A stretch of 64,000 bases of DNA from an uncultured Clostridia bacterium (GTDB taxonomy: Bacteria > Acidobacteriota > Aminicenantia > UBA2199): NCBI GenBank assembly GCA_964491915.1, contig CAZBHS010000027.1, positions 2,694-66,693 of the forward strand. Direction: 5' to 3'. Each line of letters starts with the position of its first letter. Positions within the stretch are counted from its first letter, which is position 1. Under the pieces are notes generated by a model. The model did not search any database. It saw nothing but the letters and a program-made list of their open reading frames with translations, and had not been told where the DNA came from. Shown piece by piece: positions 5,980 to 43,933 of the stretch. The translations under genes were made by a program, and so were the position numbers.

Positions 5980-6104
5980 CTTGTCCTCAATGTTCCAGTA
6001 TACACGAATCACCAGTATAGCATATAAATCCCCCTATTTGCATAAAATTCCCGGATGTGATACAAACTAAATTTCAAACCATTTACAAGAAAAGAGGTAT
6101 TTAT

Positions 6105-7865
6105 ATGAGACGAGTCATTTTAATTATTATTTTTTCAATTATGTTGAGCTTTCCGGCGCTGGCGGACGACCAGCAAATGATATCCGCCGACACGGAATTC
6201 CTGATCAAAGGCACTGTCACCAATGCCGCGAACAATGAACCCTTCAGTCACGGAAACATCCTTTTAAGAAAACACACAGCGGGAAAAATCACGACCACAT
6301 CCTTTGCCATAGGAGACGATGGAACCTTCAGGCTCCCGGACATACCCACCGGGACATACACCATCGCCATAGATATTTTCGGAGCCTCGCTAAAAACCGT
6401 TGACTCGTTTAAAATTACTGAATTCAAGCTAGAGAGCGATCAGACATTCAATATTTTGGTCAAGCCGCGGGCAATGGATTTCGTCCTGATATATGTGGGA
6501 AAAATCCGGGACTTCATGTGGGGCAATTGGATGATCCTCCTCCTGGTTGGGGCCGGAGTTCTTGTCACCTTCGCCACACGCTTCGTTCAGATCAGAAGGC
6601 TAGCCAGGGCTCTTGGTTATGTCTTCAAAGGCAATTCCAAATCCGAAAGAGAAAAGATGAAAAAAATGGAAGGTGACATCTCACCCTTCCAGGCGTTGAT
6701 GACGGCCCTCGCAGCCACAGTCGGCAATGGAAACATCGCCGGCGTAGCAACGGCAATCGCGGTGGGCGGCCCCGGAGCTCCATTATGGATGTGGATCGCG
6801 GGCTTTTTCGGAATGGCGACCAAATATGCCGAAGGATTTCTAGGAGTGAAATTCCGTATCAAAAATAAATTGGGCGAAATGGCCGGCGGCCCCATGTATT
6901 ATGCCCGCGAGGGTATTAAAAACAAGACTATCGGTAAAGCCTTAGGCGCCACATTCGCCGTCATGGGCGGAGTCGCCGCTCTGTTCGGCACCGGTAACAT
7001 GGCCCAGTCAAACTCTATGGCGCTGGCGGTCAACACCGAGTTTAGCATCCCGTTTTGGGTAACCGGCCTGCTTTTGGCTATCTTTACCGGGATTGTCACC
7101 ATCGGCGGCATCAAGCGAATCGGCGAAGTTACAGAAAAATTGGTTCCCTCGATGATTTTCCTCTACTTCGGAGGCGCATTGATCATCATTCTGGCGAATT
7201 TCTCCGGCATCCCCGAAGCGTTCAAAATCATATTCCAGGCCGCCTTCACCGGAAAAGCCGCGGCCGGAGCATTAATCGGAACCTCGATCCAGCGGGCTAT
7301 ATCCATCGGCGTTAGCCGCGGAGTACTATCCAACGAATCAGGAATGGGCACAGCCTCCATCGCGCAGGCAGCCTCGTCGTCGCCGGACCCCACCTACAAC
7401 GGGCTGATCGCCATGACCGGCACTTTTATCGATACCATCCTCGTCAACACCCTCACAACGCTATCCATTGTCCTCTCGGGCATGTACCTGCACACCCAGG
7501 CGTTCGGTGTTTCCAACGGGCTCACGTCAACGGCATTGACTCAATCGGCGTTCAATACAGTCATACCTTTCGGAGGAATAATCGTAGCTGTGGCCTCACT
7601 GCTATTTGGGTACTCCACATTGGTCGCCTGGTCATATTATGGTGAGAAATGCCTCGAGTACCTATTCGGTGTAAAAATTATCATGAGCTACCGGTTGGCG
7701 TTTGTAGTACTGATTTTTGTGGGAGCGATCATTCAGGGCGCCCACCTAAACATAATCTGGTACATCGGCGATATCAGCAATGCCCTATTAATCATCCCCA
7801 ACGTACTCGCCATCGTGTTTCTCACAAAAATATTGCGCCGGGAAACCATCAAAAAACTATACTAG
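6105..7865 (+). CDS. alanine/glycine:cation symporter (AGCS family) with an N-terminal signal peptide plus CarboxypepD_reg-like extension
   Basis: AGCS signature SPFQALMTALAATVGNGNIAGVATAIAVGGPGAPLWMWI followed by a multi-TM body. I set the start at ATG 6105 (MRRVILIII, AGAGG 7 nt upstream) rather than track start 6057. Confidence 0.9.
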   Translation: MRRVILIIIFSIMLSFPALADDQQMISADTEFLIKGTVTNAANNEPFSHGNILLRKHTAGKITTTSFAIGDDGTFRLPDIPTGTYTIAIDIFGASLKTVDSFKITEFKLESDQTFNILVKPRAMDFVLIYVGKIRDFMWGNWMILLLVGAGVLVTFATRFVQIRRLARALGYVFKGNSKSEREKMKKMEGDISPFQALMTALAATVGNGNIAGVATAIAVGGPGAPLWMWIAGFFGMATKYAEGFLGVKFRIKNKLGEMAGGPMYYAREGIKNKTIGKALGATFAVMGGVAALFGTGNMAQSNSMALAVNTEFSIPFWVTGLLLAIFTGIVTIGGIKRIGEVTEKLVPSMIFLYFGGALIIILANFSGIPEAFKIIFQAAFTGKAAAGALIGTSIQRAISIGVSRGVLSNESGMGTASIAQAASSSPDPTYNGLIAMTGTFIDTILVNTLTTLSIVLSGMYLHTQAFGVSNGLTSTALTQSAFNTVIPFGGIIVAVASLLFGYSTLVAWSYYGEKCLEYLFGVKIIMSYRLAFVVLIFVGAIIQGAHLNIIWYIGDISNALLIIPNVLAIVFLTKILRRETIKKLY

Positions 7866-8021
7866 CGACAAAGGCTTCAATATAAAAAAAGTAAACTCAA
7901 TCTAAAGAATAGGTAAACGGGGTAGCAAAAAGACAACTTTTTGTTGCCCCACCATCAATTATTTGTAACACCGTCGAATTTAGAGCCGAAATCCCAAAAC
8001 ATTGAATGCACACGCTTAAAG

Positions 8022-8042
8022 AGTGTAAAGTTTTTTTACACT
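8022..8042. promoter_or_regulatory. palindrome AGTGTAAA-gtttt-TTTACACT (candidate enhancer/UAS site 1)
   Basis: Perfect 8-bp arms with a 5-nt spacer. The core is TGTAAA-N5-TTTACA. It sits about 248 bp upstream of the sigma-54 -24 element. Confidence 0.55.
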
Positions 8043-8092
8043 ATCACTACAAGAAATCCCTTTTGTAACAGTATTATCGAAAAAAATCAAAA

Positions 8093-8113
8093 AGTGTAAA
8101 AATTTTTTACACT
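8093..8113. promoter_or_regulatory. palindrome AGTGTAAA-aattt-TTTACACT (candidate UAS site 2)
   Basis: Perfect 8-bp arms identical to site 1, 71 bp downstream of it and about 177 bp upstream of the -24 element. Confidence 0.55.
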
Positions 8114-8177
8114 AATCAAAAACACCGCGAATAACACCGATAACACAACCTAAACACCGATACGCGGATACTTGCGC

Positions 8178-8196
8178 CTGTAAAGGTTCTTTACAG
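8178..8196. promoter_or_regulatory. palindrome CTGTAAAG-gtt-CTTTACAG (candidate UAS site 3)
   Basis: It contains the same core, TGTAAA-ggttc-TTTACA (8179-8195), about 93 bp upstream of the -24 element. Confidence 0.5.
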
Positions 8197-8278
8197 TAAT
8201 TATCAAACACAAATATGATTAAAAGAACAAACATCTCAAAACCGCCAATATATTAGCATCCTATCAAAATAGAAAACC

Positions 8279-8294
8279 TGGCATCCGATTTGCT
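8279..8294 (+). promoter_or_regulatory. sigma-54 (RpoN) -24/-12 promoter
   Basis: TGGCAT-ccgat-TTGCT. GG is at 8280-8281 and GC at 8292-8293, giving exact GG-N10-GC spacing. It lies in a gene-free gap between convergent genes. Confidence 0.65.
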
Positions 8295-8305
8295 ATACAA
8301 TATAG

Positions 8306-8498
8306 TGGTAATTGAAATGATGAGAAAAACAGAAATTCTAGTAAATATCGCGGTAGCTGCCGGATGGGACGGCAACTTCAGCGTTCGTTCATTTCAATCT
8401 GACCGAGTAACTTTTATTAACAGAACACTTTCCTATTGGGGTGGGAAAAGTGATAGATAAAAGGGGGGGATGGCAGTAAGCTATCCTCCCCCTTTTGT
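8306..8498 (+). ncRNA. candidate sigma-54-dependent short transcript (~190 nt): structured sRNA, or mRNA for a 47-codon ORF (8317-8460)
   Basis: It is bounded by the sigma-54 promoter and a hairpin terminator. ATTGAAATGA (8311-8320) is perfectly complementary to TCATTTCAAT (8389-8398), a 10-bp long-range helix. The ORF reads MMRKTEILVNIAVAAGWDGNFSVRSFQSDRVTFINRTLSYWGGKSDR and has no convincing Shine-Dalgarno, unlike most genes here. Confidence 0.35.
8463..8498 (+). terminator. Rho-independent terminator
   Basis: GGGGGGGAT (8463-8471) pairs with ATCCTCCCC (8483-8491), including one G-U pair, with an 11-nt loop. It is followed by CTTTTGT. Confidence 0.6.
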
Positions 8499-8634
8499 AT
8501 CAAAAGGGGTAGTCAGCAATTCCAAACTTTAAGATAACCGACTTGTATTTCAAATCAAGATAACAATTTTTGGTATCCTATTACAAAAAAATGTCACAAA
8601 CGCTTGAGGATTGTTTTTTGGAGGGAAGGGAGAA

Positions 8635-8666
8635 GCCCCCGGTCATCCCGGGGGCCGTTGTTTTTT
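8635..8666 (+). terminator. orphan Rho-independent terminator
   Basis: GCCCCCGG-tcatc-CCGGGGGC followed by cgTTGTTTTTT. No supported ORF lies upstream on the plus strand. Confidence 0.5.
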
Positions 8667-8795
8667 ATATAAAGGGACTTTATATAAAAAAAGGAGGTGA
8701 AACCATTAATATTTTACCATGTTTTTTTTAAATTTCAACCCCTAATGGTATTTTTTTGTAAAAATATTTTTTGGTTTGTTAAATATACAAACAAA

Positions 8796-9905
8796 TCAGT
8801 TTCGCTCCGCTAAAACTTTTCCCAATTTATTTAAAAAATACTCATTATCGGCTTCGATTCCAACCGTGACCCGCATCGCGTTATCAAACCCAAAAGGCTG
8901 AAGTGGACGGATGATCACCCCTTCACGCAAGAGGCTATCATTCAATCGACCAATATCGGTCTCCGGGAAAAACAAAATGAAGTTGGCCTGGGAAGGAATT
9001 GGAGACAGCCCCATATCCTGGAGCTTAGCGAATAAAACCTCTCTATTTTTCGCGTTCAAATCCGCGGATTTCTTTTTAAAATCATCGGATTCTAGAGAAG
9101 CGATGGCTGCCCGCTGGGCCACACGGCTGATGTTAAACGGTGATTTAACCTTGCCGAGATAGAAGATCAAGTCTTTATTCGCAATCGCGTATCCTACTCG
9201 AAGGCCGGCGAGAGCGTAAATCTTGGAGAACGTCCTGAGCACAATTACATTTTTCCGGTTCACGGCAAGCTCAATTCCATCAAGATAACGATCTTCGTCC
9301 AACACATATTCCTGATAGGCGTTGTCCAAAACAACCAATTTATCCTCAGGAACCTCGTCGATAAATTTCATCAGTTCATCTTTTGGGAGCATTGTTCCTG
9401 TGGGGTTATTGGGGTTGGCGATAAAAATAATCTTGGTGTTCTCATCCATCTTGCTCCGGAATCCATCAAGATCATAGCAATACTCATCCGTAATCTCTAC
9501 TTGCGCGAAGCTTTCCTTTCCGCATGCCTCGATACTCGCGATCCTATACATCAAGAATGTTTTATCGGACGTCAATACCGTTTCCCCCGGTTTGAGGAAG
9601 GCCCTCACAATCATTTTGATCACCTCGGAGGAGCCGGGGCTCAGGATCAGATTCTCACTCCGAACATTTAAATAAGAGGCGATTTTTTCTTTAAGATAAT
9701 AGCTATCGGAATCAGGGTAAAAATGCAATGAGCCTAATTCGTCCCGAATAGCATTCGCCACATGACCGGGAATCGGAAATGGATTTTCATTGGAAGCGAG
9801 TTTCACAACTTTGTCAAGGTTATAGGTTCTCTGGATTTCCTCAATTGGCTTCCCCGGTTTGTAAGGACTTAAATCATGTAGATTTGGATTCACTAATTGT
9901 TTCAT
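8796..9905 (-). CDS. hisC: histidinol-phosphate aminotransferase
   Basis: 369 aa with LASNENPFPIP, ANPNNPTG and the PLP-lysine motif RTFSKIYALAGLRVGY. Confidence 0.9.
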   Translation of the reverse strand: MKQLVNPNLHDLSPYKPGKPIEEIQRTYNLDKVVKLASNENPFPIPGHVANAIRDELGSLHFYPDSDSYYLKEKIASYLNVRSENLILSPGSSEVIKMIVRAFLKPGETVLTSDKTFLMYRIASIEACGKESFAQVEITDEYCYDLDGFRSKMDENTKIIFIANPNNPTGTMLPKDELMKFIDEVPEDKLVVLDNAYQEYVLDEDRYLDGIELAVNRKNVIVLRTFSKIYALAGLRVGYAIANKDLIFYLGKVKSPFNISRVAQRAAIASLESDDFKKKSADLNAKNREVLFAKLQDMGLSPIPSQANFILFFPETDIGRLNDSLLREGVIIRPLQPFGFDNAMRVTVGIEADNEYFLNKLGKVLAERN

Positions 9906-11275: not shown

Positions 11276-11932
11276 CTACAGGGATAGAATCGCCCGTATC
11301 AACATGAACACCGGTTGCGCAATAAATTGAAACAGGCCCAGATAGATAATACCGATCAGAATAATAAATCCATAAGGCTTCAGCGACAGATACATGCGCA
11401 ACGCTTCGCCTTTGAGCAATCCCTCAAGTATCCCACTGCCGTCCAACGGGGGAATCGGGATCAAATTGAATATTGCCAGAAAAACATTGATGATGATTAA
11501 ATAAAAAAGGATGGCCGCCACAACTTCGATCAATCCGCCAGCCATGACGTAGAGACCTAACTTTTTTAAAATCAAAAACAAGACAATTGCCGTAAAAGCA
11601 ACCACCAGGTTGGAAATTGGACCGGCGGCGGCAATAAACATGTGATCCCTACGGGGATTTCTGAGGTTATACGGATTCACCATCACCGGCTTCGCCCATC
11701 CAAAAACCGGCTGCCCCATTACTGCCAACAATAAGGGAAATATAATGGTGCCGATTAAATCGATGTGTGGAATCGGATTGAGTGTGACGCGCCCTTGCAA
11801 TTTTGCGGTGGGATCGCCAAAGCGGTCCGCAGTCCATGCATGCGCTGCTTCGTGCACAGAGATCGCAAACATCACCGCGGCAAATTGGATAACAATAGGT
11901 AATATATCTCTCATAACATGAAAAAATAACAC
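11276..11932 (-). CDS. site-2 protease family (peptidase M50) membrane metalloprotease
   Basis: 218 aa, multi-TM, with HEAAHAWTADRFGD (HExxH) and NLIPIPPLDGS motifs. Confidence 0.85.
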   Translation of the reverse strand: MLFFHVMRDILPIVIQFAAVMFAISVHEAAHAWTADRFGDPTAKLQGRVTLNPIPHIDLIGTIIFPLLLAVMGQPVFGWAKPVMVNPYNLRNPRRDHMFIAAAGPISNLVVAFTAIVLFLILKKLGLYVMAGGLIEVVAAILFYLIIINVFLAIFNLIPIPPLDGSGILEGLLKGEALRMYLSLKPYGFIILIGIIYLGLFQFIAQPVFMLIRAILSL

Positions 11933-12085
11933 AAATCGGTATATCCGTCAACACTTGATATCCTTACCTCATAGCTATATTTATTTGACAAAAAAAAATA
12001 TAATTGATATAGTAGATTTTATCATGTATGACTAGAATAAAAAATTTGCAATTGTTCATACTCGTTCTTTATACAGGAGGTTATT

Positions 12086-13075
12086 ATGAAAAAAACTATC
12101 GTCTTTATGGTGATCCTTTCGTTCGTTCTCGGATCAGTCCAGCTCCAGGCGGGAAAAAAAGAAAAAGAGGCGCTTTACATTGCGGCTATCACTGAGCAGA
12201 ACCCTGAAATCAAGATGCAAAAACTCGAAGAATATTTTTCGAAATTCGGGAAAAAGAAAAAAAACCAGACTGCGCCTTTGTTCATCCACCTTGTGGAAAC
12301 CGCATATAAGCTGAAAAGTTGGGATAAACTGCTTAACTATTCAACGTTGGCCTTTGATTCCGGTAAACTGTCTGAAATAGACAATATGAACGTAAAACTC
12401 AAATTGGCATACTACAATATGACTGCCAAAAAAGACCTGGCGGAAGCTGAAAAATTAGCCGATGAGATTTTAGTGTTCGGAAAAAAGATCAATAACGCCA
12501 TGTGCGATAAAATGTTCTGCGCCCCGGCGTTGAGAATTAAAATCGCTATTCTTGAAGCTCAGTCCACCGATTCCAAAGCCATTACAAAAGCGTTGGATGC
12601 GTCATTTGAAGTTTACAAAATTGATAAATCCCAGAAATCCGCTGATTTTATCTTCTACTTCGCCCAGAAAGCCTACAATGAGTTGAGCTTATATGATACA
12701 GCGATTGCCGCGCTCGAAAAAATCTGTGATATCCCGAAAGCCAAAGTCGAACACATGGAAAAATTAGCATCCTGGTACATGTCCGACGGATACAATGACA
12801 AGGCTTTGAAATATTACTCAAAGTCCTACAATGTATCAAAAAATGCGCAGACAGCGTATTTGATCGGAAAACTCACTTACAAAAACGACTTGACAAAAGG
12901 ATTGAATTACCTGGCGGAAGCCTATGTATTTGATGAAGCTCCATACTCGGATCAGGCGAAAGAACTACTGGACGCAGCCTATAAAGAATCTCAACCGGAA
13001 GAGACAACTCCGGAACAGATCGACGAGGCTATCCAGCAGATGATCGAAGACGCCCGGCTGAGATTGGGTAAATAA
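12086..13075 (+). CDS. secreted helical-repeat (TPR-like) hypothetical protein
   Basis: 329 aa with signal peptide MKKTIVFMVILSFVLGSVQLQA and AGGAGG upstream. TTGACA-N17-TATAGT (11985-12013) is a plausible promoter. Confidence 0.6.
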   Translation: MKKTIVFMVILSFVLGSVQLQAGKKEKEALYIAAITEQNPEIKMQKLEEYFSKFGKKKKNQTAPLFIHLVETAYKLKSWDKLLNYSTLAFDSGKLSEIDNMNVKLKLAYYNMTAKKDLAEAEKLADEILVFGKKINNAMCDKMFCAPALRIKIAILEAQSTDSKAITKALDASFEVYKIDKSQKSADFIFYFAQKAYNELSLYDTAIAALEKICDIPKAKVEHMEKLASWYMSDGYNDKALKYYSKSYNVSKNAQTAYLIGKLTYKNDLTKGLNYLAEAYVFDEAPYSDQAKELLDAAYKESQPEETTPEQIDEAIQQMIEDARLRLGK

Positions 13076-14264: not shown

Positions 14265-16355
14265 ATGATGAACGAATTCACAAAACGATCTAATTCAATT
14301 ATTACTTTATTAATAATCCTGGCTTTGAGTGTCACTTTACTACCGGGGAAAACCAAAGAAACGGATTTACCCGAGAAATATCGCAAATGGTTGACTGAAG
14401 ATGTCACCTACATAATTACTCCGCTTGAAAAAAAGGTATTTCTTGAGTTGGAAACCGCGAAAGAGCGGGATCTCTTTATAGACGCTTTTTGGAAAAACAG
14501 GGATCCCAACCCAAACACTCCGGAAAACGAATTCAAAATCGAGCATTACAAGCGCATGCAATATGCCACCCTAAACTTTGGTAGAGGCACACCGACAAAA
14601 GGTTGGCGAACAGAAATGGGCAAAATGTATATCATATTAGGAATGCCCAACGCAATCAACCGCTATGAAAACGATACGGAAATATATCCGACAATTGTGT
14701 GGTTTTACCAGGGATTCGCCAAATATGGCCTTCCCGATGCGTTTAGCGTTGTGTTTTTTAAAAAATACGGGGCGGGAGATTACCTCCTCTACAGTCCTAT
14801 CAAGGACGGCCCGCAAAGCCTTTTAATTCATTATATGGGAGATCCTAAAGATTATGTGGCGGCTTACGACAAACTCAATTACATTGAACCGGATGTCGCG
14901 AAAATATCTCTGTCTCTCATTGAGAGTGAACGCCGATTAACCATGTCCCCCTCTATCTCTTCAGAAATTTTGATTACTAAAAAGATCGCCGAGACTCCCA
15001 CAAAAAAAGTCAATGATACATACGCAAGTAAATTATTGAAATACAAAGAATACATCGAGAGCGACTATTCGGTAAACTATGTGGACAGTAGCTCCATGGC
15101 TCAGGTTCTTCGGAGTAATTCCGGGGCGTACTATGTGCACTATTTATTGGAGCCCAAAAAACTCACCCTGGAACAATACGATGATATGTTCTATTCCAAC
15201 CTTGAGATCGATTGCAGCGTCATCGATGAAGAGACGAACATGACTGTTTACCAGTTCAATAAAACCGTCCCCATTAAATTGGAGCGGGAGCAAATGGAAA
15301 AAATTCAATCAAAATTATTTAGCTTCCAATCCTATCTGCCATTGATCGAAGGTCGCTACATAATAAATCTGTTATTTAGAAATAAAGTATCCAAGGAATT
15401 CGCTTCAATGGAAAAACATGTCGTGATCCCCTCTTACGATATTACCAAACCCACTATCAGCCCGCTCATTTTGGCTAACCGGATAAAACGATCACCACAG
15501 AATCTCGATAAGAAAAAAGCCTTCGTATTCAATGATGTGCAGTTATCGCCATCCCCTCGTAACGACTTTTCCACCAGGGATACGATCTACCTCTATTATC
15601 AATTGGAGGGGCCGAAAGAACAAATCGCCAATGGGAACATTAAATATTCTATTTACAAAGACGCCAAAGAAATCTATTCCCGCCAGAAAAAACTGAAGGG
15701 CTATGATACCGGGCAACAGATCATGGAGGAGTTCCCCCTCGCAGGAAATGTCCCCGCCTACTATAAACTCCGTGTGTCCTTATATGGCCCCACAAACAAT
15801 TTCATAACGCTTCAGGAATCGGATTTCTATATTTCACCCCTATCCCAACTCCCAAGACCCTGGGTCGTATCTCTATCTGAAAACCTTGATGACGCAGGCT
15901 TGTTCAACATTCTTGGTATCCAGTATTTCAACAAGAAAGAATATAAAAAAGCGTTTGCGCTATTGGAGAGAGCGTACAATAATAAGCCGCTCAATCCCAA
16001 ATTCGCTCTCGATTATTGCCGTATTTTATTGTTAGCCCAAAAATACGAAAAAATAATAAAAATCGCATCGGTATTCACCACTACCGAAGACAAGAAAAAC
16101 TTTTCAGGCATGATGGGTGTGGCTTCAGAAAAACTCGGCCAGTATGAAGAGGCCATTCAGCACTACAAAAATTATCTTGAGTATCATGGAACAAACATCA
16201 AGATTCTTAACTCCATCGGCGCCAGTTATGCTCACTTAGGAGATATTGACGAAGCGCTGGTTGCACTGGAGAAATCCCTGGAGCTCGAGCCCAATCAAAA
16301 AAATCTCAAAGCACAGATTGAAGAATTGAAGAAAAAAAAACAATTAAACAAATAA
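14265..16355 (+). CDS. GWxTD-domain protein, long form with C-terminal TPR repeats (module 1, A)
   Basis: 696 aa with a signal peptide. Motifs are FWKNRDPNPNTPENEF and GWRTEMGKMYIILGMP (GWxTD-type). The C-terminal TPR is YEEAIQHYKNYLEYHGTN...ALEKSLELEPNQ. It is a paralog of 27225-29342. Confidence 0.85.
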   Translation: MMNEFTKRSNSIITLLIILALSVTLLPGKTKETDLPEKYRKWLTEDVTYIITPLEKKVFLELETAKERDLFIDAFWKNRDPNPNTPENEFKIEHYKRMQYATLNFGRGTPTKGWRTEMGKMYIILGMPNAINRYENDTEIYPTIVWFYQGFAKYGLPDAFSVVFFKKYGAGDYLLYSPIKDGPQSLLIHYMGDPKDYVAAYDKLNYIEPDVAKISLSLIESERRLTMSPSISSEILITKKIAETPTKKVNDTYASKLLKYKEYIESDYSVNYVDSSSMAQVLRSNSGAYYVHYLLEPKKLTLEQYDDMFYSNLEIDCSVIDEETNMTVYQFNKTVPIKLEREQMEKIQSKLFSFQSYLPLIEGRYIINLLFRNKVSKEFASMEKHVVIPSYDITKPTISPLILANRIKRSPQNLDKKKAFVFNDVQLSPSPRNDFSTRDTIYLYYQLEGPKEQIANGNIKYSIYKDAKEIYSRQKKLKGYDTGQQIMEEFPLAGNVPAYYKLRVSLYGPTNNFITLQESDFYISPLSQLPRPWVVSLSENLDDAGLFNILGIQYFNKKEYKKAFALLERAYNNKPLNPKFALDYCRILLLAQKYEKIIKIASVFTTTEDKKNFSGMMGVASEKLGQYEEAIQHYKNYLEYHGTNIKILNSIGASYAHLGDIDEALVALEKSLELEPNQKNLKAQIEELKKKKQLNK

Positions 16356-16365
16356 GAAGGAAAAT

Positions 16366-17310
16366 ATGAAACTAAAGCAATTCACGTCGCACGTTTCGAT
16401 TGTGATGCTGGGTATCATACTATTGTTCAACGCATGTGGCGGTGGTATGACGAAACTCGTCAAACAATTACCGCCCAAGGACCAGGATTTTCTTTCTACC
16501 GTAAGATACCTGATCACAAAACAGGAAAAAAAGATATTTCTCAATCTCGCCACCGAGCCAGAGCGTTCGGAATTTATCAAACATTTTTGGAAGCAGCGGG
16601 ATCCCGACCCGAACACTGAGGTCAATGAATATAAGGAAGAGTACCTCGACCGCATTGAAACATCCAATCAACTTTTTGGGAAGAACGGTTGGCTGGGCGA
16701 CCGAGGACGTGTTTTAATCATATTAGGACCGCCGGAAACCAAACGGGTGTACCCAACCGGCCTCACGATAAACACAATGTCCGGTGAACCGAGCATTTAC
16801 GAATACCCAACTGAAGTATGGTACTATGGCTACTACAATTTCCCGATCGTGTTTGTGGATCTCCACAGAAGCAATTCCTACCAATTAACCCCTCTCAGTT
16901 CTCAACATATCGCCACCATCAACAAAGCCGGAATGCTGTTCAGGCCAGTGATTCAGGAACTCGAGCGCCCTCTGGAATTCAACCTGAAAATTACAAAAAA
17001 TAGAGACGGTCAGCACATCATCCATGCGGAACTTCCATATAAAAATATAGTGTTTGTCGAAGCCGGAGATAAATACACCGCCGACCTGGTATTAAGTGTC
17101 AAGACGTATAGTCAGGATGGAAGAGAATTCCCCCCAATCACCAAAAAATACACACTATCTCTTACCAAAGACGACCTTCAAAAAAAAGCGGACCGATTCA
17201 CAATGTCGATCCCAATACAATTGAAATCCGGTGAATACAACATGGAGATTTCGATAGAAAATAAAAATGACAAACTCAAAACGACCAAAAAAATATCGTT
17301 TAAAAATTGA
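16366..17310 (+). CDS. GWxTD-domain lipoprotein, short form (module 1, B)
   Basis: 314 aa with a lipobox-like LLFNAC. Motifs are FWKQRDPDPNTEVNEY and GWLGDRGRVLIILGPPE. It starts 10 nt after gene A and is a paralog of 26270-27247. Confidence 0.85.
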   Translation: MKLKQFTSHVSIVMLGIILLFNACGGGMTKLVKQLPPKDQDFLSTVRYLITKQEKKIFLNLATEPERSEFIKHFWKQRDPDPNTEVNEYKEEYLDRIETSNQLFGKNGWLGDRGRVLIILGPPETKRVYPTGLTINTMSGEPSIYEYPTEVWYYGYYNFPIVFVDLHRSNSYQLTPLSSQHIATINKAGMLFRPVIQELERPLEFNLKITKNRDGQHIIHAELPYKNIVFVEAGDKYTADLVLSVKTYSQDGREFPPITKKYTLSLTKDDLQKKADRFTMSIPIQLKSGEYNMEISIENKNDKLKTTKKISFKN

Positions 17311-17377
17311 AATAATCTCAGAACGTTTGTTTAAGAGGCAAAAAAGAATGAGCTTCATATATATCAAACTTTATTAA

Positions 17378-18370
17378 ATGATTAAGGAGATGATGATGAT
17401 CAAAACACACAGAATTTTTACGGTTTTATTGACCATACTTGTAATAAGTATCCTCATTCCCGTATCTGCATTCGCCCAAACTGGACGTGGAACCGCTAGA
17501 CAGAAAATCGTAGTTGTAGACAAGAATGATCAACCAATCGAAGATGCAACCGTCACCCTCGAATTTCTAGATAGCCGCGATCCAATCATTAAGCACGAAA
17601 AAAAAACCAATGAAAAAGGTGAAGTCGTTTTCTTCGGTCTTGGTTACGGTAAATGGGAAATCACAGCCAGTTACCAAGACCTCACCCCTGAAACCAAAAA
17701 AGTGACGGTGAGCCAGGTCAATATTAACCAGGTTAAAACCATGAAGCTGGTAAAATCCGCTCAAAAAATCGCCGAGGAAAAATTGAAAACCGAGGCCAAT
17801 TTGGTGGCCCAGGGAAACCAGCTTTTTAATGAAGGCAAATATCCAGACGCCCTCGCCGCTTATCAAGAATTTTTGGTGAAAAATCCTGAATTTTATCAAT
17901 TGCACTTGAATATTGGTAATTGCCATAAGGAATTAGAGCAAAATGAACTTGCTATCGCTGAATTCAATAAAATCATCGAATCTGCGAAAGACGAGGAAAA
18001 AGACAAAGCGCTCAAAGCCAAAGCTCTTGCAGCCATCGGGGAAATTCACCTCAAAAACCAGGATACAGATAAAGCGACTGAATTTTTTCAGAAATCCATC
18101 GCCCTGAATCCCAAGGATGAAATCCTCGCTTACAATGTCGCCGAGATCTTTTTCGCCAGCAATAACAACGAAGAGGCAGTCAAATATTACGACCTAGCCC
18201 TTCAGATTAAACCAAAATGGGCTGAGTTGTACCTTAAAAAAGGCTACGTTTATATGAACATGGGTGACTTTCCCAAAGCGATCGAATCTTTGAAAAAATT
18301 CATCGAATTGGATCCACAAAATGCTCAGGTCCCGGTAGCGGAAGAAATCATAAAAAGTCTTCAACAGTAA
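17378..18370 (+). CDS. CarboxypepD_reg-like domain plus TPR protein (module 1, C)
   Basis: 330 aa with a signal peptide. The beta-sandwich segment is VVVDKNDQPIEDATVTLEF...NEKGEVVFFGLGYGKWEITA, followed by TPRs (GNCHKELEQNELAIAEFNKII; KKGYVYMNMGDFPKAIESLKKFIELDPQN). AAGGAG at 17384-17389 suggests the real start is one of the in-frame ATGs at 17390-17396. Confidence 0.8.
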   Translation: MIKEMMMIKTHRIFTVLLTILVISILIPVSAFAQTGRGTARQKIVVVDKNDQPIEDATVTLEFLDSRDPIIKHEKKTNEKGEVVFFGLGYGKWEITASYQDLTPETKKVTVSQVNINQVKTMKLVKSAQKIAEEKLKTEANLVAQGNQLFNEGKYPDALAAYQEFLVKNPEFYQLHLNIGNCHKELEQNELAIAEFNKIIESAKDEEKDKALKAKALAAIGEIHLKNQDTDKATEFFQKSIALNPKDEILAYNVAEIFFASNNNEEAVKYYDLALQIKPKWAELYLKKGYVYMNMGDFPKAIESLKKFIELDPQNAQVPVAEEIIKSLQQ

Positions 18371-18613
18371 CATCAGATAAGTATATATAAAAAGAGCAGG
18401 CAATAGAATCCCTATTGCCTGCGCCCCTCCAGAATGTCCCGTTTTGTGTACTCATCCCCACTCTATGTTGATATATCTATTATAGCGACCGCCACCCTGC
18501 CGACTTCCATATAAAATCATAAGTCCAAGAGTGCGGTATTCTAGAGATTCGCCGGTGTGTTTTATGTTGTCTTTGCTTAGGGAAAAATTTTCGAAGTATA
18601 CTCGGAAGGTTTT

Positions 18614-18651
18614 ATAAAAAAAAAGGCCCTCCCGGAGGAGGGCCCTTTTTT
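18614..18651. terminator. bidirectional Rho-independent terminator between convergent genes C and D
   Basis: An A-run, then GGCCCTCC-cgga-GGAGGGCC (18625-18644), then a T-run. Confidence 0.8.
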
Positions 18652-18692
18652 ATTTGAGAACTTTTCAGTTCTAGTTCGGTTTATAAACCTGA

Positions 18693-21671
18693 TTAGAACA
18701 TCAACTTAACGCCGATCCGGGCAGCCAGAGAGGCGAGATAGTTTCTCTCCATCTTGTACTGAGGATCGAGTTTTGCGCCTTTGGACTGTACCTGGCCAAC
18801 TGCGTCGAAGCCGTCAAAGATGACCTGTTCGTCAACATAGATAACGCCTTCGTTGTAAAGCTGATGGATTCTCTGAGCGATTTCGTTGTTGGTAACGTTA
18901 GTTACGTTTACATTGAACTGTAAGGTATATCTGTCGCTCAGTTTCATGTTATATTCCAGATAAGCATCGGCGGCCCACAGGAACGGAGTCCGATCCAGGT
19001 TGCCTCTGCCGTAAGGATACCATCCCTGCATACCGTTCAGATAAACTTCTGTCTGCACGGGGGTACCGGTCATTGCATAGGCGTTGAAACCAATGGTCAG
19101 ACCGAAATCCCAGGAATAGGCGCCATACAGTTTGAACTGTAAGCTTCTGTCGGTGGGCAGAGGACCGGTGTGGTCTTTGCCATCTTCAGTGTAGGTCATG
19201 AACCAGGCGTCAAAGTATCTTTCAACGCCGGGGTCTTTACGACCATGCTCATCGGAACTGGCCAAACCAGAGAAGTTACCTTTCAAGCTACTCCAGGTCA
19301 AGGACAAACCACCCAACCAGTTGTTGGAGAATTTTTTATCCAAATTGGCCTGAATGGAGTAGTAATTACGGATAGCTTTTGTGGCCTGGATACCCTGCGG
19401 CATAAGACCCAGAGCCTGCACTTCGTCATACTTCTGCTGGATCCAGTCGGAGCCGGGGTTGCCATTGAAATAAATTTCGCCTTCGGGATACTGCACACCG
19501 ATGTCTTCGATGGCGTTCACGATGGTGTTGTGTAAGAATCTTACGCTCAACGCAACATCTTCAGTAATTTTTTTCTGCACACCGAGGGTGTACTCATATT
19601 TGCTGAAGGGTTTCATGTTGGGCTGAGTGGTATCGAAGGACGGGATCCTCCAGTTACGGGATTCCAGATAGGGATTGCCATTAAAACTGTCAACCGGGTG
19701 TACATCTACGTTAGTATATGCATCCCAATTGGGGTTCTGAATGTTGTAATAATGGGAAACCCATTTGAATCCACCATAGGAACCTTCAGCCATGGCCAGC
19801 TTCATTACGTCATAATAGATACCGAAAGATCCGAAGATCTTGAGGTCGGAATCGCCAAAAACGTCATAGGCAAAACCAAGCCTAGGAGCAATTTTGTCGC
19901 CGAAACCAAACTGGATCGGCGGATCGGAATATTCAGGAAGGTCGCTGAAGGAGGGGATATCCTCTTTCTCAAACCTAACACCGGCGTTGACAGTCAATTT
20001 TTCTCCGACGGTCCACGCATCCTGAAGATAAACCGCAAAACGGTTGCTGGAAATGTTAGCAATCGAACCAAAAGGAGATCTTACTTCAACATAACCCAGG
20101 TCGGTACCAATGGTCTGACCGGAATTGGGGGATTCAAAATCGTCGCCCCAGTAAAAGCGGTTGTAGTTGTAAGGATAAGCGTCATCCTTATCAACACCGA
20201 CTTTCACATACTGAAAACCGATCTTCCATACATGTTCGCCAGCTAGATTCATGTAGTAGGTCAAATCAGCGGTGGCGGTCAACTTGTTGTTGATGTCTTT
20301 GTTGGTTGCGAAACCATCATAGTAACCATAGTTTGCATAATATAGGGGTACTACGGGGTTGCCATAACCAGAAGAAGCTCTCAAGTGATAGAAACGGGGG
20401 CCTTCGGGTTTGACGCCCTGGAGCCGGTTCGTTTTCCAGTAACCAGCGGTGACGTTCAACATCGCGTTGTTACCGATGGTATAATCCAGGCTACCACCAA
20501 CGGTGAAGCTGGGATATTCCCAAGTCTGGTCTTCCCAGGCTTTGAGACCGTTACCGGAACCATCCAACGGAGGCAGTTCGCCGTCTTCATTCCAGCTATC
20601 AATGGTACCACTCAAGGACAAACGCACATTATTGGCAACCTGACCAGTCAATTTCAAAGAACCGGCATAATAGGTGCGATCACGGGTGATTTCCCTATTC
20701 AGTTCGGGCGAAGCTGAAAAGACTCCGTCTCTGGTGGTTTTGTAGAACTTAGGCATAAAGCTGCCGAAGAACCACAATTTGTCTTTGATGATATAGCCGC
20801 CGATACCGATACCGGGCTCGATACGAGACCATGAATCTTCGGGATAGGTGACGTATTCAGCGATTGTGTCATCATAAGGATTGTGACGCAGAGTCGGAAC
20901 TGGGTCATAACCCAGGGCGCTACCGTCATAATACAACATGGCAGAACCGTGGAATTCATTACCACCACTACGGGTGATAACACTGATAACACCACCCATG
21001 GACCCACCGTATTCAGCAGCGTAACCGGAAGATTTTACCTGGACTTCTTCGATGAAGTCAAAGTTTACGTCCTGCCCGGATTCACCACTGAACAATGTGG
21101 TTGTGTCGACACCGTCTACGAAAAAGACATTTTCAGAACTACTTGCACCGTCAAACGAAATACCGCCGAGCTCTTCTTCATTGTTAACACCAGCAGAGGT
21201 GGTAACGATGGAGGTAAAGTTACGGCCTTTCGGTAATTTGGTGAAGGTTTCTTTGGTGATATTTACCGTGGTGGCACTCTTACGAACATCCAGAACGGGG
21301 GACTGTCCGGTGACGACGATCTCTTCACGGATAGCACCAGTCTGCATGATCACATTGATTTTAATGGTTCTACCGATATCAACCCTGATCTTTTCCCGTT
21401 TGATGGTTTTAAAACCTTCAAGACTAAAGGTGATGGTATAATCACCGGTGGGAAGAGCGAGCAACCGAAAGCCACCATTTTCATTCGATACTGTCGTACG
21501 GACACCAACCATGTTAGTACCAGTCGCTTCGATTGCTACGCCTGGGATAGCGGAGCCATCTTCGAGCACTACTGTTCCAATAACTTCACCTGTCTGCTCC
21601 TGAGCGAACATTGTACCGCCAAAGAGTAACGCAACAGCGAAGAACAAAACCAAACATTTTTTGTTAAACAT
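18693..21671 (-). CDS. Oar-like TonB-dependent outer-membrane barrel with N-terminal CarboxypepD_reg domain (module 1, D)
   Basis: 992 aa with a signal peptide. The CarboxypepD_reg segment is GTVVLEDGSAIPGVAIEA...NENGGFRLLALPTGDYTITFSLEGF. A plug-like region follows (VVTGQSPVLDVRKSATTVNITKETFTKLP), then a long beta-rich body. The C-terminal residue is Phe (GVKLMF). GGAGG lies before the ATG. Confidence 0.85.
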   Translation of the reverse strand: MFNKKCLVLFFAVALLFGGTMFAQEQTGEVIGTVVLEDGSAIPGVAIEATGTNMVGVRTTVSNENGGFRLLALPTGDYTITFSLEGFKTIKREKIRVDIGRTIKINVIMQTGAIREEIVVTGQSPVLDVRKSATTVNITKETFTKLPKGRNFTSIVTTSAGVNNEEELGGISFDGASSSENVFFVDGVDTTTLFSGESGQDVNFDFIEEVQVKSSGYAAEYGGSMGGVISVITRSGGNEFHGSAMLYYDGSALGYDPVPTLRHNPYDDTIAEYVTYPEDSWSRIEPGIGIGGYIIKDKLWFFGSFMPKFYKTTRDGVFSASPELNREITRDRTYYAGSLKLTGQVANNVRLSLSGTIDSWNEDGELPPLDGSGNGLKAWEDQTWEYPSFTVGGSLDYTIGNNAMLNVTAGYWKTNRLQGVKPEGPRFYHLRASSGYGNPVVPLYYANYGYYDGFATNKDINNKLTATADLTYYMNLAGEHVWKIGFQYVKVGVDKDDAYPYNYNRFYWGDDFESPNSGQTIGTDLGYVEVRSPFGSIANISSNRFAVYLQDAWTVGEKLTVNAGVRFEKEDIPSFSDLPEYSDPPIQFGFGDKIAPRLGFAYDVFGDSDLKIFGSFGIYYDVMKLAMAEGSYGGFKWVSHYYNIQNPNWDAYTNVDVHPVDSFNGNPYLESRNWRIPSFDTTQPNMKPFSKYEYTLGVQKKITEDVALSVRFLHNTIVNAIEDIGVQYPEGEIYFNGNPGSDWIQQKYDEVQALGLMPQGIQATKAIRNYYSIQANLDKKFSNNWLGGLSLTWSSLKGNFSGLASSDEHGRKDPGVERYFDAWFMTYTEDGKDHTGPLPTDRSLQFKLYGAYSWDFGLTIGFNAYAMTGTPVQTEVYLNGMQGWYPYGRGNLDRTPFLWAADAYLEYNMKLSDRYTLQFNVNVTNVTNNEIAQRIHQLYNEGVIYVDEQVIFDGFDAVGQVQSKGAKLDPQYKMERNYLASLAARIGVKLMF

Positions 21672-21710
21672 TAAACCTCCTCAAAATTTTGTGGATTGAG
21701 GTATAATACA

Positions 21711-21726
21711 AGCAATAATTTTGCCA
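21711..21726 (-). promoter_or_regulatory. sigma-54 promoter of the minus-strand barrel gene
   Basis: The minus strand reads TGGCAA-aatta-TTGCT with exact GG-N10-GC spacing. The -12 element is about 40 nt upstream of ATG 21671, with GGAGG in between. Confidence 0.65.
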
Positions 21727-21794
21727 AGCCCCTTCACTTTGTGAAACCTCTTAACAATTAGTTTTCACAATAGTAGAAAAAAATAAACCAAAAG

Positions 21795-21813
21795 TTTGGA
21801 TTCCACATCCAAA
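21795..21813. promoter_or_regulatory. palindrome TTTGGAT-tccac-ATCCAAA between the two divergent sigma-54 promoters
   Basis: Perfect 7-bp arms with a 5-nt spacer. It sits about 80 bp upstream of the minus-strand -24 and about 175 bp upstream of the plus-strand -24, which is a candidate activator-site position. Confidence 0.35.
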
Positions 21814-21976
21814 ATAACGGATCGCCTATTACGGGAATCTATTTTCCATTATATAAAGATTTGATATAATATGAAAGAAGTTGAACTCTATGCAGTAACC
21901 TATTAGTTGGGGTTCAGGGAAAACACAAATACTTTTTTACACTATTTTAGAATTGAAAGAGCAGGCCAACCGCATA

Positions 21977-21992
21977 TGGCACGACTTTTGCT
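21977..21992 (+). promoter_or_regulatory. sigma-54 promoter of the plus-strand barrel gene
   Basis: TGGCAC-gactt-TTGCT, a full consensus with GG at 21978-21979 and GC at 21990-21991. It is about 110 nt upstream of ATG 22102, which is preceded by AGGAGG. Confidence 0.7.
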
Positions 21993-22101
21993 AAATATTT
22001 TAGCTATGTATTTAAAGAAATGTGCTAAATTTTATAGAGCCAGGCCCAATTGGCAAAAAAAGCTTTATAGGATCTAGCCTAAGTTTAGTTAGGAGGTATT
22101 T

Positions 22102-24909: not shown

Positions 24910-24945
24910 TCCAATTCTGAAACTGTAGTAACATTCAAATAAAAA

Positions 24946-24977
24946 GGGGACGCTTTAACCAGCGTCCCTTTTTTTTA
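24946..24977 (+). terminator. Rho-independent terminator
   Basis: GGGACGCT-ttaacc-AGCGTCCC followed by T9, about 35 nt after the stop. Confidence 0.85.
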
Positions 24978-25140
24978 TCCAATTATTTGGATCATCACTC
25001 CCCACCAACCCCCCACTGAATATTCCCTCATATTAGGAAGAACTCCCCGCTGATCTGGACCACCCGCATGATGATCTCTCAAGATATAAGAGCGCTCTTA
25101 GTGAGGAGTATTAGGAGGATCGGTGAGAAGGTGATGGGTA

Positions 25141-25167
25141 GTTAGTGTGGCCACTGGCCACACTAAC
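25141..25167. repeat. perfect 12-bp-stem hairpin GTTAGTGTGGCC-act-GGCCACACTAAC
   Basis: A perfect inverted repeat 29 nt beyond the stop of the minus-strand gene 25196-26161. No U-run follows on that strand, so it is not a canonical terminator. Confidence 0.5.
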
Positions 25168-25195
25168 ATTCGATATTTTCTATTCTAGGTTTTAC

Positions 25196-26161
25196 TTACT
25201 TTAAATCTTTTATTAAGCTCTTTATTGTATCTGCCTGGGGATCATCCGGAGCTATTTCCACGAACTTTTCCATATAGGAAACAGCTTTGACGGTATCGCC
25301 TTTATTCAGATAGGCATATCCGAGTTTCAAGTAAGATTTCGGCCAATCGGGCTTGATTTTGATAGCCATCTCATAATACTTGACAGCCTCATCCACTTTA
25401 TTCATGTTGAAAAGGATTTCCGCGACATTGTAGGCAAGCGCATGATCGGTGGGATCGATTTCCATTGATTTCTTGAAATTGGCTTCGGCTTCCGCGAATT
25501 TGTCCTGGGCCATGAAAGCTTCGCCAAGACTGGCGTAAACCCTTGCGGAAATGGTATTGATTTCTTTGGTTTGTTCAGCTTCCGCCGCCAATCCCGCCAA
25601 TACTTTTTTGTACTCTGCTATCGATTCGGGGTATTTACGGAGCCGGAAATAGCAATTGCCTATATTGATTCCCACCTTATAGAGCAATGGATTTTTTTCA
25701 CGGAATTTTAAAAACATATCGAGAGCGCCTTTATAGTTATCCTGTTTAAACATTTGATTGCCCTGCAAAAATTCCGACCTTGAGCCATCATCCTTGATAC
25801 CCACAGGCGTCTCTTCAGAAATCTTTTCCATTTCAATTCTCTGCTTCGGGTTTTTTCCAGCCTGACTTAACTGTATCGGCATGATAGTGCGAACATATCC
25901 CTCTTTTTCTGCAGTCACCCGGTACGGGCCGTTGGCGAAGCCATAGAATCCCCACTTTCCCTTCTCATCGGAAACAGTCTCCATGCTAAATTTATACTTC
26001 AAGGATTCCAACAAAATTTTGACCCCGCCCACAGTATTACCATCCTGATCCTGCACAATACCGGTCACCCGCCCCACGCCTCTTCCTTCCTGGGACAATA
26101 CCAACGAAGATCCAGCAAATACAATCATTATCAATACGAAAAAAAGCGAGAGTTTTTTCAT
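25196..26161 (-). CDS. CarboxypepD_reg-like domain plus TPR protein (module 2, C')
   Basis: I set the start at ATG 26161 (MKKLSLFFVLIMIVFAGSSLVLS, AGGAGG upstream) rather than track start 26233. The beta-sandwich segment is GIVQDQDGNTVGGVKILLES...DEKGKWGFYGFANGPYRVTA. The TPRs (GNCYFRLRKYPESIAEYKKVL; KLGYAYLNKGDTVKAVSYMEKFVEIAPDD) are colinear with 17378-18370. Confidence 0.8.
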   Translation of the reverse strand: MKKLSLFFVLIMIVFAGSSLVLSQEGRGVGRVTGIVQDQDGNTVGGVKILLESLKYKFSMETVSDEKGKWGFYGFANGPYRVTAEKEGYVRTIMPIQLSQAGKNPKQRIEMEKISEETPVGIKDDGSRSEFLQGNQMFKQDNYKGALDMFLKFREKNPLLYKVGINIGNCYFRLRKYPESIAEYKKVLAGLAAEAEQTKEINTISARVYASLGEAFMAQDKFAEAEANFKKSMEIDPTDHALAYNVAEILFNMNKVDEAVKYYEMAIKIKPDWPKSYLKLGYAYLNKGDTVKAVSYMEKFVEIAPDDPQADTIKSLIKDLK

Positions 26162-26269
26162 CTTATTCCTCCTAATTATCAGGTTAATCATTCTGATCAT
26201 AACCACACATTCTACCAAAATTCCCTGGTACAATCAATGAACCGGGACTCCACAATAGAGCCGCGGATA

Positions 26270-29342: not shown

Positions 29343-29348
29343 GAATTA

Positions 29349-29377
29349 ATTATATTCAATAGGATGAATCAAGTCAA
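29349..29377 (-). promoter_or_regulatory. sigma-70-type promoter of GWxTD module 2 (leaderless geometry)
   Basis: The minus strand reads TTGACT (29377-29372), a 17-nt spacer, then TATAAT (29354-29349). The A of ATG 29342 is 7 nt after the -10 hexamer, and there is no Shine-Dalgarno. Confidence 0.6.
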
Positions 29378-29514
29378 ATAATCGCCGTCCCATCACATTA
29401 ACTTTTTTCGCAGCGCCTACGTATGAAAAAATTATGAGCCATATAAATTTTGTATTTTTCGAAAGAAAATGGTAAAATGCAACATCAAGCAATCGATTTA
29501 AAGGAGAAGCGATT

Positions 29515-43549: not shown

Positions 43550-43933
43550 GGACACAGTTTTTCGTCCCCTTTCGAGGGGAATAAAAAAACCATTAAATAT
43601 CCGCCATTTCACCCTCACAATCAACCTTTTACCCAAAAGGCCACCAAACAAATTCGCATAGTTAAAAGCAGTAAAAACCACTCTTTTCTCACTTAATATG
43701 ATATAAATTAGCCACCATTTGGACACCAAACGACTAAAGAAACTCCAAACGAACCCAAACGAGAGCCATATTTTTTTCTCTCTATCCTGCCCTATTGGCA
43801 GATTGCAGACAATATTTACCGGTAACCAGTTTTTTCAAAATAATTGAAAAAAAATTCAAAAAAAAAATAAAAACCCGAATTACAGAAGGTCCACCCATAG
43901 AGTCTGAGCAGCCACAAATATATTATAATGTGT

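Follow-up and report, generated by a model that had tools for sequence, protein, structure and literature searches.

We analysed a 64,000-nt stretch of DNA (assembly GCA_964491915.1, contig CAZBHS010000027.1, positions 2,694–66,693 of the forward strand; hereafter the window) in which two convergent genes, one for an AGCS-family symporter ending at 7865 on the plus strand and hisC ending at 8796 on the minus strand, enclose a gap whose longest open reading frame (ORF) spans 56 amino acids, in agreement with an earlier statement that none reaches 60. Our subject is the segment 8022–8498 of this gap. A preliminary description had presented it as a transcription unit driven by sigma-54 and an enhancer-binding protein encoded elsewhere, with either a small regulatory RNA or a micro-protein as its product; the analysis below supports such a unit and favours the RNA. 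Reading the sequence directly, we recover all of the features on which that description was built, namely three palindromes, a promoter, a pair of complementary decamers and a terminator.

The palindromes, which we treat as putative activator boxes, share the core TGTAAA-N5-TTTACA. Box 1 (AGTGTAAA-gtttt-TTTACACT, 8022–8042) and box 2 (AGTGTAAA-aattt-TTTACACT, 8093–8113) lie 71 bp apart from centre to centre, ~273 and ~202 bp upstream of the predicted transcription start, and box 3 (cTGTAAAg-gtt-cTTTACAg, 8178–8196) is centred ~118 bp upstream of it. The exact core occurs three times in 64 kb, always within the AGCS/hisC gap. With up to one mismatch allowed, a single further match appears at 38715, and the resulting four matches compare with 0.20 expected, a count reached by none of 100 shuffles. 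The predicted sigma-54 (−24/−12) promoter, TGGCATccgatTTGCT at 8279–8294 on the plus strand, agrees with TGGCAC-N5-TTGCW at 10 of 11 positions, and its spacing (TGGCAT-ccgat-TTGCT) is exact, as had been claimed, with GG at 8280–81, GC at 8292–93 and 10 nt between them. Counted from the end of box 3 at 8195 to the start of TGGCA at 8279, the spacer measures 83 nt; the palindrome centres stand 93, 177 and 248 bp upstream of the GG, inside the range of ~80–300 bp expected of upstream activator sites. The promoter motif alone is not rare, its 10 matches in the window with up to one mismatch being no enrichment over the 7.1 expected, and the significance of this element therefore rests on its geometry and conservation.

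Conservation and structure of the predicted RNA

Relatives of the locus were found by searching a larger protein collection with HisC and then with AGCS, and their contigs were fetched. The comparison involves four species: the window, L083 (NCBI GCA_024644125.1; HisC 85% identical), L084/L085 (HisC 89%; L084 from ERZ23499181) and L210 (Logan SRR31131363; AGCS 91%, HisC 88%); a further contig, L086, is short and near-identical to the window. The convergent AGCS/hisC pair with a gap of ~935 bp is kept in all close relatives. Across the four species hisC retains 85–89% amino-acid identity with an essentially saturated 50–54% identity at third codon positions, and the spacers of the gap, 38–46% identical among the window, L083 and L084, are as diverged as those positions. 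The activator boxes are 84–95% identical between species, the sigma-54 element 84%, the 5' helix arm 94%, and the second hairpin together with the terminator 94% over 86 nt; L210 displays the same pattern. Box 1 is 95% identical in L083 and has an identical core in L210, box 2 is 90% identical in L083 and L084, and box 3 reaches 84–95% between flanks of 38–61%. The sigma-54 elements of L210, L083 and L084 (TGGCATCAGATTTGCT, TGGCACGCGATTTGCT and TGGCATCGGTTTTGCT, respectively) are likewise embedded in diverged flanks. Such conservation against a saturated background indicates that every one of the listed features is under selection. Lack of conservation in relatives had been named in advance as a ground for abandoning the proposed unit, and we observe the opposite, with all of its features retained in three further species-level relatives. 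Conservation sets in at 8303; the transcription start predicted from the −12 element lies two bases further downstream.

Two smaller features complete the left part of the gap. The motif TTTGTAACA is present in just two plus-strand copies in 64 kb, both in the gap, 70 and 41 bp before the centres of boxes 1 and 2: the first (7962–7970) is conserved in L210 and L083, and the second (8062–8070) forms part of a block, TTTGTAACAGTATTATC, which lies between boxes 1 and 2 and is nearly invariant across the four species. It is possibly recognized by an auxiliary protein that binds or bends DNA. Just 3' of the AGCS stop codon, the sequence GGGGTAGCAAAAAG-acaa-CTTTTTGTTGCCCC (7919–7950, plus strand) forms a hairpin that is retained, with changes on both of its arms, in L210 and L083; in this lineage the AGCS transcript probably ends here, and the hairpin would delimit the unit on the left.

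The unit is young and narrowly distributed. In two relatives with 65% HisC identity (L087 and L088) synteny is kept, the gaps measure only 241 and 339 bp and the sigma-54 unit is absent from the syntenic position, which confines it to a narrow clade. A relative with 75% AGCS identity (L209; JGI Ga0081594_1000203) has lost the AGCS/hisC synteny. The best genome matches of the AGCS protein are Candidatus Aminicenantes metagenome-assembled genomes at only 55–62% identity, and none of the 80 genome loci retrieved through AGCS (Aminicenantes and others, at most 62% identical) has the palindromes, synteny with hisC or a sequence resembling the gap; nor does an exact 20-mer of the RNA find a match in the JGI metagenome collection.

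The predicted non-coding RNA extends over ~194 nt (8305–8498, plus strand), from a start placed 12 nt after the C of the −12 element to an end within the T-tract. The predicted folding energy of the plus strand of 8305–8500 is −66.6 kcal/mol (z = −4.64), and the fold of the minus strand is less stable by 8.4 kcal/mol. In the four-species consensus the 5' domain is a 100-nt hairpin (8306–8405) whose outer helix of 15 pairs (8306–8320 with 8389–8405) includes the decamers noticed previously, ATTGAAATGA (8311–8320) being the exact reverse complement of TCATTTCAAT (8389–8398), and encloses a Shine–Dalgarno-like sequence and an AUG. An A-rich, variable internal loop (8321–8346) is followed by inner helices (8347–8351/8381–8385 and 8355–8362/8370–8377) and an invariant apical loop, GAUGGGA, at 8363–8369. 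Hairpin 2, CACUUUCC-(loop UAUUGGGGU)-GGGAAAAGUG at 8426–8452, has a G-rich loop and is invariant bar one loop base; its G–U pairs are compatible with the plus strand only. The third hairpin is the predicted terminator (8459–8498), composed of an A-tract, an 18-pair G/C-rich hairpin with a stem that is invariant and a loop that varies in relatives, and UUUUGUAU; a terminator scan reports it as a hairpin with T-tract at 8463–8498, with a 12-pair stem (8463–8491) that has 8 G–C pairs and a tail CTTTTGTATC.

In the consensus fold 96.7% of the alignment cells are paired, against 42–51% for slid controls. Four pairs (five cells), each of them within the inner 5' helices, have changed on both sides, and 2 of 500 shuffles reached the covariation score of the four-species alignment; a change from U–A to U–G in the outer helix of L210 also fits the plus strand. 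The support for structure is moderate and short of proof, since there are four sequences and two of the hairpins are invariant. As far as computation can tell, the transcript has its own promoter, an intrinsic terminator and no conserved reading frame, as befits a short independent transcript. We put the probability that 8022–8498 is a self-contained small non-coding RNA gene dependent on sigma-54 and an enhancer-binding protein at roughly 0.7, and that of a sigma-54-dependent non-coding RNA as such at about 0.75.

The RNA matches no Rfam 15 family, either at gathering thresholds over the whole window or at E ≤ 10 over 7850–8810, where there is only noise; the best score is 21.9 bits against a gathering score of 50. 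A Termite-leu match at 21 bits was rejected as merely the terminator. A sponge for CsrA-type proteins was likewise rejected, the ~190 nt having four GGA triplets, near chance, with one in a loop. Among the duplexes predicted with 45 start regions in the window, that of the linker with the scpA leader (−19.5 kcal/mol) was discarded because it is not kept in L083. The contig L209 encodes Hfq along with a FliK-like hook-length protein at 11825–12166, so that Hfq-dependent action is at least possible in this group.

The palindromes and the PEP-CTERM box

What could be the activator that reads these palindromes? Haft et al. 2006 (PMC1569441; BMC Biol 4:29) report a 17-nt motif that has TTTACA as its 3' end and is in some cases repeated; ahead of PEP-CTERM genes, a sigma-54 motif follows it at a distance of 32–92 nt (mean 63). 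In their account, the downstream units are single-gene PEP-CTERM operons with short leaders (minimum 23 nt), 99 of 167 proteobacterial PEP-CTERM genes carry the site and a few sites precede other genes, and the phylogenetic profile of the motif matches PrsR, PrsK and PrsT, with PrsR the predicted binder (PMC1569441). Compared with the motif as that text describes it, the window palindrome has the same length of 17 nt, the same TTTACA 3' end and three copies, and the spacer of 83 nt falls inside the published range (PMC1569441).

We scanned metagenomes for two TGTAAA-N5-TTTACA boxes 40–70 nt apart, which yielded at least 120 loci, of which 80 were kept. Among these 80 of at least 120, 6 strong sigma-54 matches 25–120 nt downstream of a box were observed, with 0.32 expected. 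At one locus (L164) a PrsR gene, whose TIGR02915 score of 595 bits exceeds the cut-off of 502.6, is followed by a pair of boxes, then by a sigma-54-like element and finally by a PEP-CTERM gene; at L108 the boxes stand ahead of a PEP-CTERM gene, and at L110 boxes and a perfect sigma-54 promoter precede an EPS (polysaccharide) export operon. Because the motif, the spacer and these three loci match the account of Haft et al. 2006, the palindromes are best identified as being of the PEP-CTERM-box type, and the palindrome is not a novel site. The TyrR box (TGTAAA-N6-TTTACA) was considered and set aside, its spacing being off by one and the sigma-54 context fitting the PEP-CTERM box better. The activator may belong to the PrsR family, a proposal to which we give slightly less than an even chance.

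The palindrome alone cannot define a regulon, because most of the paired-box loci are unrelated in context. Several of them (L090, L141, L155, L165 and others) have boxes of the form TGTAAAC-N3-GTTTACA, often as an overlapping pair with a third some 70 bp off, which precede small Cys-rich proteins ending in YCDHPER...C and have no sigma-54 element; these appear to constitute a separate widespread regulon. At the Geobacter-like locus L157 (13550–13900, minus strand), a stretch of ~330 nt devoid of an ORF comes after a pair of boxes and the strong sigma-54 promoter TGGCACTCCCCGTGCT, and it includes GAUGGGA and a hairpin with a U-tract. This arrangement raises the possibility that box-driven non-coding transcripts exist in other phyla as well.

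The preliminary description had found no activator gene in the window, and we concur: the GAFTGA motif is absent from all six frames, and Sigma54_activat (Pfam) has no match among the window ORFs scanned, a scan that left out the ORFs at 60.5–63.4 kb. No PEP-CTERM tail is encoded in any frame downstream of the promoter or anywhere else in the window. Among the papers listed by a literature search on Aminicenantes together with PEP-CTERM, exosortase or sigma-54, none mentions Aminicenantes. Elsewhere in the window, the divergent intergenic region 21672–22101 separates two large TonB-dependent-receptor-like genes (18693–21671, minus strand; 22102–24909, plus strand) and contains one sigma-54-like site for each of them, TGGCAAAATTATTGCT at 21711–21726 (minus strand) and TGGCACGACTTTTGCT at 21977–21992 (plus strand), as well as a lone half box TTTACACT at 21936–21943. 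The two sites are a hint, on the level of motifs, of an active RpoN system in this genome.

Neighbouring element and alternative readings

Beyond what had been described before, the right-hand 175 bp of the gap (8620–8795) form a separate and even more widely conserved element that adjoins hisC on the minus strand; in it GGUUUCACCUCCUUUUUUU is accompanied by two hairpins, one A/U and the other, at 8635–8655, G/C. It is 90–92% identical among the window, L083 and L084, while the 110 bp between the two units (8511–8619) are 39% identical and of variable length. Further copies lie at 11105–11290 in L083, 2703–2890 in L084, 4454–4640 in L087, 4619–4812 in L088 and ~9330–9502 in L210, and seven loci, those of the relatives with 65% HisC identity among them, share an invariant 45-nt core (GGTTTCACCTCCTTTTTTTATATAAAGTyCCTTTATATAAAAA) made up of GGUUUCACCUCCUUUUUUU and the A/U hairpin. 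Ahead of this core, a sigma-70-like promoter on the minus strand (8738 to 8711) has the hexamers TTGAAA or TTGATT and TAAAAT, TAGAAT or TACAAT at 16–17 nt, with compensating variation in the hexamers; the G/C hairpin comes after the core. The element is a candidate gene for an RNA of ~85 nt on the minus strand, the 5' end of which, CACCUCCUUU (also given as CACCUCCU), equals the anti-Shine–Dalgarno tail of 16S rRNA; it has no Rfam match. The G/C hairpin is a canonical terminator of the plus strand in the terminator scan and, on this prediction, is the ancestral AGCS terminator. The sigma-54 unit appears to be an insertion, acquired by a recent ancestor, that now separates AGCS from this element.

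In one alternative the RNA acts in cis: induced plus-strand transcription and the bidirectional terminator with its conserved extension would modulate or insulate the convergent transcripts of hisC and of 8620–8795 by collision or antisense read-through. The terminator, which has an A-tract on one side and a U-tract on the other, has a predicted fold on either strand, and this symmetry makes it potentially bidirectional; a second plus-strand terminator lies inside the minus-strand element (the 8635–8655 hairpin), and each of the four species has the two units side by side. Past the U-tract, an extension AUCAAAAGGGG (8499–8509, plus strand), invariant in the four species, can pair with the preceding CCCCUUUU, and in L210 a 4-nt insertion falls exactly in the would-be loop of this hairpin. 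On the minus strand the same small hairpin would compete with the large terminator hairpin. The poorly conserved 110 bp between the units nevertheless argue against coupling, as does the neighbouring element itself, which is unchanged in L087 and L088 where the sigma-54 unit is missing; the conserved 5' loop and hairpin 2, moreover, would not be required for a purely cis function. We regard this alternative as unlikely.

A micro-protein gene is unlikelier still. In this reading the peptide of 45–54 amino acids would be the functional product or, in a milder form, the transcript would be a dual-function RNA. The 47-codon ORF (8317–8460, plus strand) is open from its conserved ATG in all four species, with lengths of 47, 54, 46 and 45 amino acids, and the N-termini are alike, M-(K/R)-(K/R)-x-T leading into hydrophobic residues in a basic-then-hydrophobic pattern. 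The preliminary description had also stated that this frame has no Shine–Dalgarno sequence, which holds for the window (AGTGGTAAT) and fails for three relatives, in which AGTGGTGAT, a 7/9 match to the extended Shine–Dalgarno sequence with GGTGAT as its Shine–Dalgarno-like part, is found 4 nt before the ATG. PEP-CTERM-box promoters, furthermore, usually drive single protein genes with short leaders (PMC1569441).

The frame, however, is not conserved. The conserved GGATGGGACGG is read in a different frame in L083, and translation of the invariant 3' block yields NRTLSYWGGKSDR for the window and for L083, KQNTFLLGWEK for L084 and TEHFPFGVGKVIDKRGGWQ for L210, each followed by a stop, so that all three frames are in use. 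An earlier proposal was to weigh covariation in the helix against three-nucleotide periodicity, and the outcome is compensatory change in the inner 5' helices with no codon periodicity: over 34 ungapped codons the window and L084 differ at 10, 11 and 10 first, second and third positions, the 4 synonymous and 16 non-synonymous changes leave no third-position excess, and shifted frames give the same result. The level of nucleotide conservation passes unchanged through the stop codons and the terminator, and the Shine–Dalgarno-like sequence and the AUG are locked in the 15-pair helix. An exhaustive HMMER search with the 56-aa ORF revealed no true homologue among 1.84 billion representatives; its two matches were rejected as translated satellite repeats (62/186 bp and 69 bp) on eukaryote-like contigs. 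A conserved frame or sequence, a third-position bias and homologues, by which a small protein gene would be recognized, are all missing here. Because of the drifting frame, the lack of codon periodicity and the lack of homologues, we conclude that selection acts on the nucleotide sequence and not on a protein. The 47-codon ORF is accordingly judged not to be a conserved protein-coding gene, and the transcript is best read, from these comparisons, as a non-coding RNA, from which a short N-terminal peptide is possibly translated.

The unit might also be a relic, a promoter that formerly drove a PEP-CTERM or other protein gene, now decayed, and that leaves a short transcript without function. The published promoter class indeed precedes protein genes (PMC1569441), the absence of the unit from relatives with 65% HisC identity marks it as evolutionarily recent or mobile, and the duplex scans in the window produced no targets. 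The transcribed region is, however, the best-conserved DNA of the unit, compensatory changes maintain its inner helices, and none of its frames displays a PEP-CTERM-like tail, all of which renders a relic very improbable. Least probable is a reading in which a sigma-70-type repressor or some other DNA-binding protein uses the palindromes as operators, the sigma-54 match is fortuitous and the conserved 3' block is merely a shared terminator. This proposal, which can draw on the lack of enrichment of the sigma-54 motif, on the paired-box loci devoid of a sigma-54 element and on a sigma-70-like TTTACA-18-TATGAT overlapping box 3, is opposed by a −24/−12 element kept in four species between flanks of 38–46% identity, by a box–promoter distance within the 32–92 nt given in the published description of the motif (PMC1569441), by the onset of conservation at the predicted start site (8303–8305) and by a 5' hairpin that is no terminator and is yet conserved with covariation.

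Several observations weigh against the RNA gene that we favour. Besides the persistently open frame, its similar N-termini and the Shine–Dalgarno-like sequence of the relatives, these are, first, the character of the evidence, in which the promoter, the start and the terminator are predictions, the species number four, hairpins 2 and 3 never vary, and the covariation comes from 4–5 pairs of the inner 5' helices as scored by a shuffle control that related sequences can exceed even without structure. Second, the RNA has no conserved target among the 45 start regions, and an nhmmer profile of it, run against 1.56 Mb of loci and the window, returned the known copies only. Third, no rpoN gene was seen in the 64-kb window or in the 14–18 kb available from relatives, and neither of these holds PrsR, PrsK, an exosortase or a PEP-CTERM protein. 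Finally, the published box is reported from Proteobacteria only (PMC1569441), and most of the paired-box loci kept (80 of at least 120) have no sigma-54 element and occur in other contexts, among them a phage- or plasmid-like array of boxes with DnaA boxes at L137, so that the palindrome by itself is not specific.

Three other features of the window lie apart from this gap. Within 14265–30552, mirrored genes flank the divergent receptor genes mentioned above: GWxTD/TPR, GWxTD and TPR-plus-CarboxypepD_reg genes at 14265–18370 on the plus strand recur as the same types in reverse at 25196–29342 on the minus strand. A stretch at ~43900–53100 has a low G+C content, 37–44% against 45–53% elsewhere, encodes a tyrosine integrase (51224–52240), three small helix-turn-helix proteins and several ORFs without a Pfam match, and ends at a tRNA gene (53004–53076); it is probably an integrated mobile element. 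A second AGCS-family symporter (53250–54599) has 449 aa and is without the CarboxypepD_reg-like extension found at the N-terminus of the 602-aa copy (6057–7865).

Proposed mechanism and comparison with known systems

How might the unit work? The analysis demonstrates the sequence features, their retention over a saturated background, a lack of constraint on coding and a fold with some covariation; that the unit is transcribed, where its transcript begins and stops, which protein activates it, and how and on what the RNA acts are inferred. An NtrC-family activator encoded elsewhere in the genome, most likely a PrsR-type response regulator paired with a PrsK-type kinase, would bind the three palindromes when phosphorylated, as dimers or as a higher oligomer. 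Looping of the A/T-rich intervening DNA would bring it to the closed complex of the sigma-54 holoenzyme, which would be opened through hydrolysis of ATP by the activator at TGGCAT-N5-TTGCT (8279–8294). RNA synthesis would begin near 8305 and end at the hairpin and U-tract of 8463–8498. In the resulting transcript the 5' hairpin would hide the AUG and the Shine–Dalgarno-like GGUGAU within its 15-pair helix and present the GAUGGGA loop. The induced RNA would most likely act in trans, either by base pairing through its invariant loops or the single-stranded linker or by binding a protein, and would give the signal of the activator a post-transcriptional arm; should the activator be PrsR, that signal would concern the control of exopolysaccharide and surface proteins, that is, of aggregation.

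We see in this locus a new RNA family of a known regulatory kind that only a narrow clade possesses; its link to the PrsR regulon is plausible but unproven. A more far-reaching hypothesis, which we consider doubtful, is that the PrsK/PrsR regulon reaches the Aminicenantes and there commands a riboregulator located beside an older small RNA with an anti-Shine–Dalgarno-like 5' end, the two perhaps influencing each other or translation initiation in general. Should PrsR prove to be the activator, the PEP-CTERM box would work far outside the Proteobacteria and an RNA would join that regulon; if the extension is true, the control of exopolysaccharide and aggregation in uncultured sediment bacteria would gain a post-transcriptional arm. 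The practical value is modest, as the RNA belongs to a narrow clade and its targets are not inferable from the present data. The locus does offer a precisely delimited candidate, with three boxes, a promoter, a 194-nt RNA fold and four natural variants.

With the PEP-CTERM-box/PrsK–PrsR regulon the unit shares the repeated 17-nt motif, the 83-nt spacer, the −24/−12 element and the organization as a single short transcription unit in a large intergenic region. It differs in its product, a structured RNA that has no PEP-CTERM domain, in its host, which is Aminicenantes-like and not proteobacterial, and in its boxes, of which there are three, spread over 175 bp.

Small RNAs dependent on sigma-54 serve as switches of quorum sensing, amino-sugar synthesis and catabolite repression in well-studied Proteobacteria; to our knowledge, nothing comparable has been described in the Aminicenantes, an abundant uncultured lineage of sediments and the subsurface. 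GlmY and GlmZ of Enterobacteria are activated by sigma-54 and the response regulator GlrR, and GlmY acts by sequestration of a protein, RapZ. Like them, the unit is a stand-alone small RNA gene of ~150–200 nt with three stem-loops including the terminator, a sigma-54 promoter and three palindromes of the TGT-N-ACA type ~100–250 bp upstream; unlike them, it belongs to another phylum, has another box sequence and displays no similarity in sequence or structure (the Rfam search was negative). The GlrR model NF011695 is also among the NCBIfam matches of the scan that gave TIGR02915. Qrr1–5 of Vibrio depend on LuxO and sigma-54, and in Pseudomonas CrcZ and CrcY depend on CbrB and sigma-54 and NrsZ on NtrC and sigma-54. 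The likeness to these lies in a small RNA gated by an enhancer-binding protein as the sole product of its unit, by which a two-component signal is turned into post-transcriptional control. Theirs, however, carry Hfq-dependent seeds or repeated protein-binding motifs, whereas the RNA described here has four GGA triplets, no repeated unit and no Rfam homologue.

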